Virus record (IMG/VR): IMGVR_UViG_2713896908_000007
DNA length: 64,000 nucleotides
Direction: 5' to 3' (one strand)
DNA from: a virus
Taxonomy: Duplodnaviria; Heunggongvirae; Uroviricota; Caudoviricetes
Part shown: positions 48,356-50,173 of the stretch, in pieces
Position numbering within the stretch: position 1 is the stretch's first letter
How the letters are laid out: the number at the start of each line of letters is the position of its first letter
Position numbers and translations under genes: made by a program
The notes under the pieces: generated by a model
Told to the model about the DNA's origin: nothing
Database searches by the model: none
Seen by the model: only the letters and a program-made list of their open reading frames with translations

Positions 48356-48399
48356 GTCAAAAGGCCCGGAACGGGCAAGCAATCAGCAAACAACCGCCG

Positions 48400-49720
48400 A
48401 GAACCCTCGCCCAATGCGGGCGGGGAGGAAAGGCGGGAAAGCCCACAGGGCTTTAAAAAAAAATCATTACGGTGTTAGCATAAAAACCTGTATCAATGAG
48501 CGGTGACTATGTTAAGAGCGACAAAAGTACGCATCTATCCAACCACTAAACAGGCTGAGTATCTCAACGCCCAGTTCGGCGCCGTGCGTTTTGCGTACAA
48601 CAAAGCTCTTCACATCAAAAAACACGCTTACCAGCGACACGGAGTGAATTTAAGTCCGCGTAAAGATTTAAAACCGTTGTTGTCTGTGGCGAAGAAGTCC
48701 CGTAAGTATGCCTGGCTTAAAGAATTTGATTCAATGGCATTGCAACAGGCGGTGATTAATCTTGATGTGGCGTTTTCCAACTTTTTTAATCCGAAGCTGA
48801 AAGCCCGGTTCCCGACGTTTAAACGTAAACATGGGAAGCAATCGAGCTACCATTGTGTCGGGATTAAAGTACTGGAGAATGCCATCAAAATTCCTAAGCT
48901 GGCACCGATAGAAGCGCGTATACACCGTGTAATGACGGGAAAAGTGACGAGCATAACAATCACTCGCAGTGCCACCGGGAAATACTACGCATCCATCCTT
49001 TGTGAAGACGGTATTCCCACACCAGCGAAACCTGCGTATCTGGAGGAAGAAAAGATTACTGGTGTGGATATGGGACTTGAGCACTATGCCATCAGGTCTG
49101 ACCGGGCAAAAATTGCGAATCCCCGCCATCTCATCAATGCCAGCCGTAATCTGCGACGCAAACAAAAAGCGCTATCCCGCAAGCAAAAGGGAAGCGCGAA
49201 TCGTAAAAAGGCCAGAATCCGTCTTGCGGCCATACACGAACGGGTAGCGAATGCCCGTGCTGATTTTCAACATAAACTTTCTCGTACAATTGTTGACGAA
49301 AACCAAGCGGTAATTGTCGAGACGCTGAAAACAGCCAACATGATGAAAAACCACAATCTGGCAAGAGCAATAGGTGATGCAGGCTGGCATAGCTTCATCA
49401 CAAAGCTGGAGTACAAGGCAGCGGAAAAAGGCGTTCACCTGGTAAAACTCGACCAGTGGTTTGCCAGTTCGAAAACGTGCCATTGTTGTGGTTACAAAAT
49501 GCCGGAAATGCCGCTTCATAAACGCATCTGGCGATGCCCTGAATGTGAAGCAGAGCATGACCGCGATATCAATGCGGCACTCAACATCCGGCAAAAAGGG
49601 ATACTGGAACTAAAGGCGGCGGGACTCGTCGTCTCTGCCCATGGAGGCCAGCGTAAATCCGTCGTACAGACGGTTGCGGCCTGAGATGTGGGAAGCCTCG
49701 CCCAACCGGGCGGGGAGCAG
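48400..49720 (+). mobile_element. IS200/IS605-family TnpB-only element flanked by similar GC-rich hairpin repeats (boundaries approximate)
   Basis: Direct imperfect repeats CCTCGCCCAAtgCGGGCGGGG (48405-48425) and CCTCGCCCAAcCGGGCGGGG (49696-49715), each an imperfect palindrome, flank tnpB. Confidence 0.5.
48503..49684 (+). CDS. tnpB: TnpB (RuvC-like RNA-guided nuclease of IS200/IS605 family)
   Basis: 393 aa; MTMLRATKVRIYPTTKQAEYL…; GVDMGLEH, ETLK, CPECEAEHDRDINAALNI; distinct from the first tnpB. Confidence 0.9.
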   Translation: MTMLRATKVRIYPTTKQAEYLNAQFGAVRFAYNKALHIKKHAYQRHGVNLSPRKDLKPLLSVAKKSRKYAWLKEFDSMALQQAVINLDVAFSNFFNPKLKARFPTFKRKHGKQSSYHCVGIKVLENAIKIPKLAPIEARIHRVMTGKVTSITITRSATGKYYASILCEDGIPTPAKPAYLEEEKITGVDMGLEHYAIRSDRAKIANPRHLINASRNLRRKQKALSRKQKGSANRKKARIRLAAIHERVANARADFQHKLSRTIVDENQAVIVETLKTANMMKNHNLARAIGDAGWHSFITKLEYKAAEKGVHLVKLDQWFASSKTCHCCGYKMPEMPLHKRIWRCPECEAEHDRDINAALNIRQKGILELKAAGLVVSAHGGQRKSVVQTVAA

Positions 49721-50173
49721 TCACATACGTGCGGATGTGGCATTACCGTAATGACGGTGCTGACGGGCCACCTTATTGAAAAGTTGACGCGCCATTACCC
49801 AAGGCTGGTGCTCCCGGCGTTCCTTTTCGTCCTGCGTCATATAGAGTTCGTTCTGGAGTTTTTCATCAAACCGGCGCGGAGCGCGGCTACGGCGAAAGAA
49901 TTCAGGATTCAGAGAGTGGATCTGAAATCTACGTGGGCGTGTACTGTCATCAATCAAAACAGACGAATACTTAGACACAGCAATAGCCTTTAAGCGCAGA
50001 TAAACATCGCGCTTATCGACATCCAGATGCGGGTATTCCTTTTCAAGAATTGCTGCGAGTTCTTTCGCTGATAGAAGAGATTTAGTGCGGATCATGTAAT
50101 CCGCAATCTCGTACGATGTTATTCGTGAGTGATTTATTTCCATGAAGTGGCGTCCCTGCCAGTTAAGTAACAT
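49721..50173 (-). CDS. lpa: late promoter activator (P1 Lpa/gp10-like by position)
   Basis: 150-aa ORF upstream of pacA, preceded by a C1 operator. Confidence 0.5.
   Translation of the reverse strand: MLLNWQGRHFMEINHSRITSYEIADYMIRTKSLLSAKELAAILEKEYPHLDVDKRDVYLRLKAIAVSKYSSVLIDDSTRPRRFQIHSLNPEFFRRSRAPRRFDEKLQNELYMTQDEKERREHQPWVMARQLFNKVARQHRHYGNATSARM

Follow-up and report, generated by a model that had tools for sequence, protein, structure and literature searches.

A probable tnpA-less member of the ISEc46 lineage at the 3' end of lpa in a P1-like phage-plasmid

A tnpB insertion next to lpa and LPpac

The stretch of DNA analysed here (64,000 nucleotides of IMG/VR record IMGVR_UViG_2713896908_000007, referred to as the window) is that of a P1-like phage-plasmid and carries a TnpB-encoding element next to lpa, the gene of the late promoter activator, and LPpac, the late promoter of pacA (Table 1). 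Relative to P1 and three other insertion-free alleles, this element is an insertion of 1,338 bp (48387-49724), and the span of 48361-49740 proposed in a first-pass annotation of the same DNA had to be corrected to these limits. The four insertion-free alleles read GCAATCAATCAGATACGTGCGG and the occupied allele of the window reads GCAATCAG[CAAACAACC...GGGGAGCAGTCAC]ATACGTGCGG, where the inner brackets enclose the element. LPpac, located by moving the P1 annotation over via a collinear alignment, lies exactly where the first-pass annotation had seen a late promoter of pacA; it is intact and separated from the left junction by 31 bp. The placement of the element between lpa and this promoter was right to within a few bases, but the site is not purely intergenic, as the right end reaches into the last codon of lpa.

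On the minus strand, the insertion point falls between bases 2 and 3 of this last codon (AT/C TGA) and the terminal GTCAC of the element provides a G followed by TGA, that is, the final base of the codon and the stop. As the target TCAG and the TCAC of the right end share TCA, insertion at a TGA stop of the reverse strand regenerates the stop codon, and Lpa therefore keeps its length of 150 residues, of which 149 are identical to those of P1 Lpa, I150M being the only change. With LPpac untouched, the length of Lpa kept and a single conservative change at its terminus, the insertion seems to cost the phage very little.

A TnpB of 393 aa had been predicted at this locus, and an open reading frame (ORF) on the plus strand (48503-49684) indeed encodes 393 aa from a GTG, or 391 aa from the ATG at 48509 that RefSeq uses as start, with the Pfam domains HTH_OrfB_IS605, OrfB_IS605 and Cas12f1-like_TNB. 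Of the whole element, RefSeq labels the TnpB protein only. Residues 4-381 align to the structures of ISDra2 TnpB (8bf8, 8exa and 8h1j; E=1e-78), so that the two proteins are homologous over their whole length and share the same catalytic residues, the RuvC triad D187/E271/D353 of the window protein aligning to D191/E278/D361 of ISDra2. Both CxxC pairs of the zinc finger (C324/C327/C343/C346) are present as well. The protein also differs, as had been stated, from the product of another tnpB gene in the window (27847-28977), to which it is 40.7% identical.

The boundaries of the element were examined in a comparison set of 80 loci encoding TnpB relatives from Gammaproteobacteria, plus further E. 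coli copies. In about 70 loci, unrelated DNA follows the right terminus ...GGGGAGCAGTCAC, which itself hardly varies, and this places the 3' end of the element at 49724. On the left side, 52 independent junctions showed variable DNA, then T-[T/C]-A-G and then CAA, and in both insertion-free alleles that were comparable (P1 lpa and the psiA region of IncK/I plasmids) TCAG stands directly 5' of the right flank. From this junction pattern and the TCAG of the empty alleles it is evident that TCAG is the flanking target and that the element starts just behind it. A target-site duplication is absent and the right junction is precise beside the TCAG of the insertion-free alleles. The junction had also been read as an insertion after TCA with ATCAG lost on the right, and this reading was replaced by an insertion after TCAG with one ATCA lost on the left; both yield an identical sequence, and the TCAG reading is preferred because of the family-wide conservation of TCAG/TTAG, the co-variation of the guide described below and the IncK allele.

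End hairpins, guides and the missing tnpA

The imperfect repeats that the first-pass annotation had described on both sides of tnpB (CCTCGCCCAATGCGGGCGGGG on the left and CCTCGCCCAACCGGGCGGGG on the right), each an imperfect palindrome, were found as described. Their interpretation as left-end (LE) and right-end (RE) hairpins of an IS200/IS605 insertion sequence (IS) is borne out by the comparison set, in which more than 50 independent loci, ranging from Photorhabdus to Idiomarina, have the same hairpins at the same positions relative to tnpB (or to tnpA plus tnpB) and at a conserved distance from the element termini. Each hairpin as single-stranded DNA has an 8-bp stem with one T.G mismatch. 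The folding energies (LE -8.8 and RE -8.2 kcal/mol; z -1.8 and -1.5) are not significant alone, and the case for the hairpins therefore rests on the comparison with other loci. In the 64 kb, the hairpin motif (up to 3 mismatches) was detected only at the two element ends, with 0.23 matches expected by chance and none of 100 shuffles reaching at least 3 matches. The top stem pair of the RE hairpin co-varies, being CG in 28 and GC in 25 sequences. There are no terminal inverted repeats, and subterminal imperfect palindromes are present at both ends, which is the arrangement that defines IS200/IS605 elements.

In IS608, the left cleavage tetranucleotide lies in the flank, 19 nt 5' of the foot of the left hairpin, the right cleavage site is the last tetranucleotide of the element, 10 nt 3' of the foot of the right hairpin, and each cleavage site is read by a guide of 4 nt that adjoins the hairpin foot on its 5' side (PMC3201880). 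The ends of the window element match this layout (C_L in the flank, C_R terminal, G_L and G_R 5' of the hairpin feet), the cleavage sites being 18 nt (TCAG, left) and 9 nt (TCAC, right) away from the hairpin feet. The target and TAM (target-adjacent motif) sequences differ, with TTGAT in ISDra2, TTAC in IS608 and TCAG, the presumed TAM, in the window element. The right-end pair of TCAC with GAAG is near-invariant among the relatives. On the left, the guide GAAC was found with TCAG in 6/6 tnpA-less copies from plasmids or phages and the guide AAAC with TTAG in 51 relatives with or without tnpA, chromosomal ISEc46 included, with one CTAG as exception. By analogy with IS608, guide and target might pair as T.G, C.A and A.A, followed by a Watson-Crick pair. 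IS608 has reportedly been re-targeted by engineering, and the co-variation of guide and target seen here is the natural counterpart.

TnpA queries that detected a divergent tnpA, located between LE and tnpB, in about 30 of the 80 relatives found none in the 64-kb window. Full-length relatives have their left end on the far side of tnpA, and the first ~72 nt of the left end of the window element align to it. This indicates that the window element is a tnpA-deleted derivative, and without tnpA this copy is non-autonomous. The missing Y1 (HUH) TnpA, which sets the window element apart from ISDra2 and IS608, is a mark of a non-autonomous derivative and not a reason for exclusion from the IS200/IS605 family.

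RefSeq annotates an 'ISEc46 family transposase' beside chromosomal E. coli copies that are 79% identical to the window element. ISEc46 has an identical LE hairpin (CCTCGCCCAATGCGGGCGGGG), the same RE terminus and the same omegaRNA helices, and it resembles the window element with 83% aa identity in TnpB and about 79% identity in DNA; it differs in that LE and tnpB are separated by a divergent tnpA (141 aa), and in its LE guide AAAC and target TTAG in place of GAAC and TCAG. The same LE-tnpB-RE layout without tnpA, with GAAC and TCAG, was found in relatives from IncI/IncK plasmids and phage RCS47, which are annotated as 'IS609 transposase insQ' or 'ISEc46 orfB' and whose TnpB proteins are 88-92% (tnpA-less plasmid relatives) or 83% (RCS47) identical to that of the window. 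These relatives occupy other sites (downstream of psiA, downstream of repL, beside hicA or beside an antirestriction gene), and as the nearest of them, tnpA-less elements on IncI/K-type plasmids, are only about 90% identical in DNA, none is the immediate donor. The tnpA-less element of RCS47 combines a TCAG/GAAC-type left end with a TnpB sharing 99.7% identity with the TnpB of a chromosomal E. coli ISEc46 that is of full length and of TTAG/AAAC type, suggesting mosaic elements whose left ends may have been exchanged independently of tnpB. P1 was discarded as the empty site for the RCS47 copy, as RCS47 departs from P1 downstream of repL.

The window element thus very probably belongs to the ISEc46 lineage of IS200/IS605 as a non-autonomous member without tnpA, and it lies 3' of a TCAG overlapping the lpa stop codon. 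Elements of this kind are well known, ISEc46 is a named IS (ISfinder), one that the papers found mention only in lists of mobile elements, and the window copy is an ordinary IS of a known family. As the window copy and ISEc46 have identical LE hairpins, the TnpA of ISEc46 is a plausible mobiliser in trans. A Y1 TnpA supplied in this way, for example from a chromosomal ISEc46, would bind the hairpins as single-stranded DNA, excise the element and insert it 3' of TCAG as set by the left-end guide GAAC. The predicted joint of a precise excision would be GCAATCAG followed directly by ATACGTGCGG, and the predicted RE-LE junction of a circle would be ...GCAGTCAC followed directly by CAAACAACC.

The omegaRNA scaffold and its predicted guide

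For 58 distinct relatives the final 190 nt were aligned as RNA, and the RNAalifold consensus contained 35 pairs, 15 of them with compensatory changes. Paired cells amounted to 98.3%, compared to 88.0% in column shuffles, none of which reached the observed value (0/500), and when the partners were slid by 1-3 columns only 32-52% of the cells were paired. The scaffold region overlaps the C-terminal codons of TnpB, and double compensatory changes are not produced by coding constraint alone. The RE hairpin is the last of the helices, and its conserved T.G 'mismatch' corresponds to a U.G wobble in RNA. This conservation identifies the last ~110 nt as a predicted omegaRNA scaffold that ends at the 3' terminus of the element. 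A match to the Rfam family mir-750 was rejected as due to chance.

Directly beyond this terminus lies the predicted guide, the 20-nt sequence ATACGTGCGGATGTGGCATT, and because tnpB is transcribed in the direction opposite to lpa and pacA, an omegaRNA guide is antisense to the 3' end of lpa. TCAG followed by the 20-nt sequence was found as an exact match in 4/4 insertion-free alleles, P1 included, and in the window the 20-nt sequence is present at the occupied site only, after TCAC. A role of TnpB in homing is established (review PMC13565253), and the position and target of the predicted guide would conform to the standard homing geometry. TnpB, for which nuclease activity together with its RNA is predicted only, would use the 16-20 nt just past the right end as omegaRNA guide and cut the insertion-free allele (TCAG + ATACGTGCGGATGTGG...), after which homologous repair with the occupied copy as template would restore the element or spread it. 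It is uncertain that such homing is in operation with TCAG as TAM.

Table 1. Features of the element and of neighbouring genes in the window
Feature	Position	Strand	Remarks
TCAG, target tetranucleotide, left cleavage site C_L, presumed TAM	48383..48386	+	flank, outside element; relatives and insertion-free alleles
Left end (LE), non-coding	48387..48508	+	122 nt fold at -23.2 kcal/mol, z -3.5
LE outer stem	48394-98/48432-36	+
LE guide G_L, GAAC	48401-04	+
LE subterminal imperfect palindrome IP_L	48405..48425	+	CCTCGCCCAATGCGGGCGGGG; T.G mismatch
LE second hairpin	48438-54	+
tnpB	48509..49684	+	391 aa + stop; Pfam, ISDra2 TnpB match, motif positions
omegaRNA scaffold, predicted	49614..49724	+	overlaps tnpB 3' end and right end; RNAalifold, 58 relatives
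omegaRNA helices	49614-20/49628-34, 49638-42/49688-92, 49645-52/49676-82, 49659-63/49669-73, 49696-703/49708-15
Possible 3-bp long-range pair	49565-67/49720-22
Right-end guide G_R, GAAG	49692-95	+
RE subterminal imperfect palindrome	49696-49715	+	CCTCGCCCAACCGGGCGGGG
TCAC, right cleavage site C_R	49721..49724	+	last 4 nt of element
Predicted omegaRNA guide/protospacer	49725..49744	+	ATACGTGCGGATGTGGCATT; directly 3' of RE; antisense to lpa 3' end
LPpac, late promoter of pacA (-10 and -22 boxes)	48337..48355	minus	P1 annotation moved over via collinear alignment
lpa (late promoter activator)	49721..50173	minus	Pfam BPP1_LPA; BLASTP vs P1
pacB	45624-47108	minus
pacA	47108-48301	minus
pdcB	50262-51305	minus	doc and phd beyond (order pacB, pacA, lpa, pdcB, doc, phd)

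Occurrence of the insertion and alternative explanations

Positions 48300-49800 of the window are 100% identical to two Escherichia albertii plasmids, and the E. albertii plasmid NZ_CP117651.1 matches both TnpB regions of the window at 100%. The identical insertion at the lpa site was detected in 4 plasmid records of E. albertii and 3 of E. coli (7 in total), and copies of at least 99% identity are located at this site only (3 E. coli genomes and 4 E. albertii plasmids), no further such copy being found elsewhere in 5,426 complete E. coli genomes, 580 of which carry relatives covering at least 80% of the element. When the joined flanks were used as query, at least 80% was covered by 554 plasmid records, and the site was empty in all 40 among the matches listed. 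In the literature, no paper on TnpB insertions in P1-like phage-plasmids and no report of a TTAG TAM were found.

The presence of two TnpB elements in one phage, which the first-pass annotation had called notable, is uncommon but not exceptional, as the insertions are common to other P1-like plasmids (7 and 23 records). The first TnpB element (27736-29024, 1,289 bp, tnpB at 27847-28977 on the plus strand), whose insertion is carried by the 23 plasmid records, sits exactly at the overlapping prt stop and pro start (ATGA) in the head late operon. At this site the portal protein, which ends in ...GNEND* without the insertion, ends in ...GNDIDNCPP* at a stop codon located within the IS. The ATG of pro is retained, and 8 nt in front of it the left end of the IS newly provides a GGAGG. 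At its right junction, the first element is one base off the empty site (ATCGTTT vs CTCGTTT).

Further observations concern the surroundings of the insertion. Just beyond pacB, Rfam matches on the minus strand to a C4 antisense RNA (45319-45406, 75 bits) and to an isrK-like Hfq-binding RNA (45451-45529, 58 bits) mark the phage immunity control region of ant/icd type (45319-45529). After phd/doc, positions 52295-58312 on the plus strand hold a type I restriction-modification-like set, with an hsdM-like ORF of 520 aa followed by ORFs of 406 and 1,038 aa. The otherwise near-identical E. albertii plasmid pEA50_2 has other genes at this position, a difference that, judged from the sequences, is due to flux of accessory regions among plasmids with the same IS insertion. 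In the insertion-free plasmids of E. albertii RM9973 and E. coli KFu022, the GCAAGCAA tandem directly upstream of the insertion site has become shorter by one GCAA, and the spacer between lpa and LPpac appears to be a hotspot for slippage at short tandem repeats.

Several observations weigh against a simple insertion that has remained active and uses TCAG as TAM. The occupied P1 allele lacks one ATCA of ATCAATCA, which is present in every insertion-free allele seen, so that the junction is not a textbook insertion without gain or loss. No match to an Rfam family was obtained for the scaffold, either at gathering thresholds over the whole window or in E-value mode over 48380-49780, and a scan of 48250-49850 revealed no sigma-70 consensus promoter. 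The single site shared by all copies of at least 99% identity gives, as far as the records go, no sign of recent movement. The six TnpB proteins of the TCAG group do not show any fixed substitution in the N-terminal TAM-reading domains when compared to 40 proteins of the TTAG group, the sole residue separating the two types being position 275, outside these domains, and the TCAG-flanked TnpB of RCS47 is 99.7% identical to that of a TTAG-flanked ISEc46. The preferences of nuclease and transposon for their targets may therefore be uncoupled, and either the nuclease would accept TYAG or the coupling of TAM and target would be broken.

The loss in the left flank has a parallel in the occupied IncK/I psiA allele, which lacks 639 bp separating two ATCAG sites in insertion-free plasmids; with this DNA between its flanks, the IncI/IncK locus was rejected as a simple empty site. 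Both occupied alleles examined thus lack DNA just upstream of the insertion TCAG, and each deletion is bounded by direct repeats of ATCA(G). Slippage is a plausible source of the ATCA loss at the P1 site, because other plasmids have dropped one GCAA of the adjacent repeat, and the recurrence of a deletion with the target motif at its borders may instead stem from an IS-mediated rearrangement.

The alternative that keeps most weight, although it is doubtful, is that the insertion is an inert passenger or relic, that is, a stranded and immobile IS with TnpB and omegaRNA unexpressed or no use of TCAG as TAM, which has been inherited with one sub-lineage of P1-like plasmids. The absence of tnpA in the window and of a consensus promoter, the confinement of all copies of at least 99% identity to the lpa site, and the lack of a change in the TAM-reading domains alongside the shift from TTAG to TCAG all agree with such a state. 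However, the ORF is of full length and keeps all catalytic and zinc-binding residues, the hairpins and guide tetranucleotides of both ends are intact, as are all omegaRNA helices, and six independent TCAG insertion sites on plasmids and phage-plasmids argue that the tnpA-less form has been mobilised repeatedly.

It is far less likely that TnpB and omegaRNA, or an antisense transcript running into lpa, have been domesticated in the manner of TldR and now tune the late expression of lpa or pacA. The guide and any read-through transcript would be antisense to the 3' end of lpa, the site is a regulatory hinge between lpa and LPpac, and phage-encoded regulators derived from TnpB reportedly exist. 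In the TldR-type regulators, which are nuclease-dead, RuvC residues or the C-terminus and the transposon ends are lost, whereas the window element keeps its RuvC triad and all features of both ends; moreover, most P1-like plasmids lack the element (7 occupied records against the 554 that cover the joined flanks), and its guide is whatever sequence flanks RE. Finally, there is hardly any probability left that the flanking palindromes are REP-like (repetitive extragenic palindromic) or terminator-like repeats of host or phage unrelated to tnpB, the finding that the first-pass annotation had named as fatal to its proposal, because these short, GC-rich, imperfect palindromes of unremarkable folding energy are present in the 64 kb as two copies only, exactly at the insertion boundaries, are missing from the insertion-free P1 alleles and recur with tnpB in the comparison set, unlike palindromes of the REP/BIME (bacterial interspersed mosaic element) type with their many dispersed copies.

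A more far-reaching role of the element, in which it would serve P1-like phage-plasmids as RNA-guided gene drive or as a weapon to exclude one another, appears improbable. If it were true, insertion-free P1 genomes that enter or share the cell would be cut in their essential late-activator gene by an occupied plasmid already resident or by an occupied phage that co-infects, and the competitor would be destroyed or turned into an occupied allele by recombination.

The feature can now be annotated as a non-autonomous ISEc46-type IS with exact ends, target, guide and omegaRNA helices. The tnpA-less plasmid lineage appears to have been naturally re-targeted from TTAG to TCAG via its left-end guide and so offers a natural test of whether the TAM follows the target of the transposon; the co-variation of guide and target without a matching change in TnpB raises the question of whether the TAM of the nuclease and the target of the transposase can diverge. 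The window element indicates that such an IS can be accommodated within the 3' end of a gene for an essential phage regulator with hardly any cost, and as its predicted guide is aimed at wild-type P1, homing or the exclusion of competitors would be testable in a classic genetic system.

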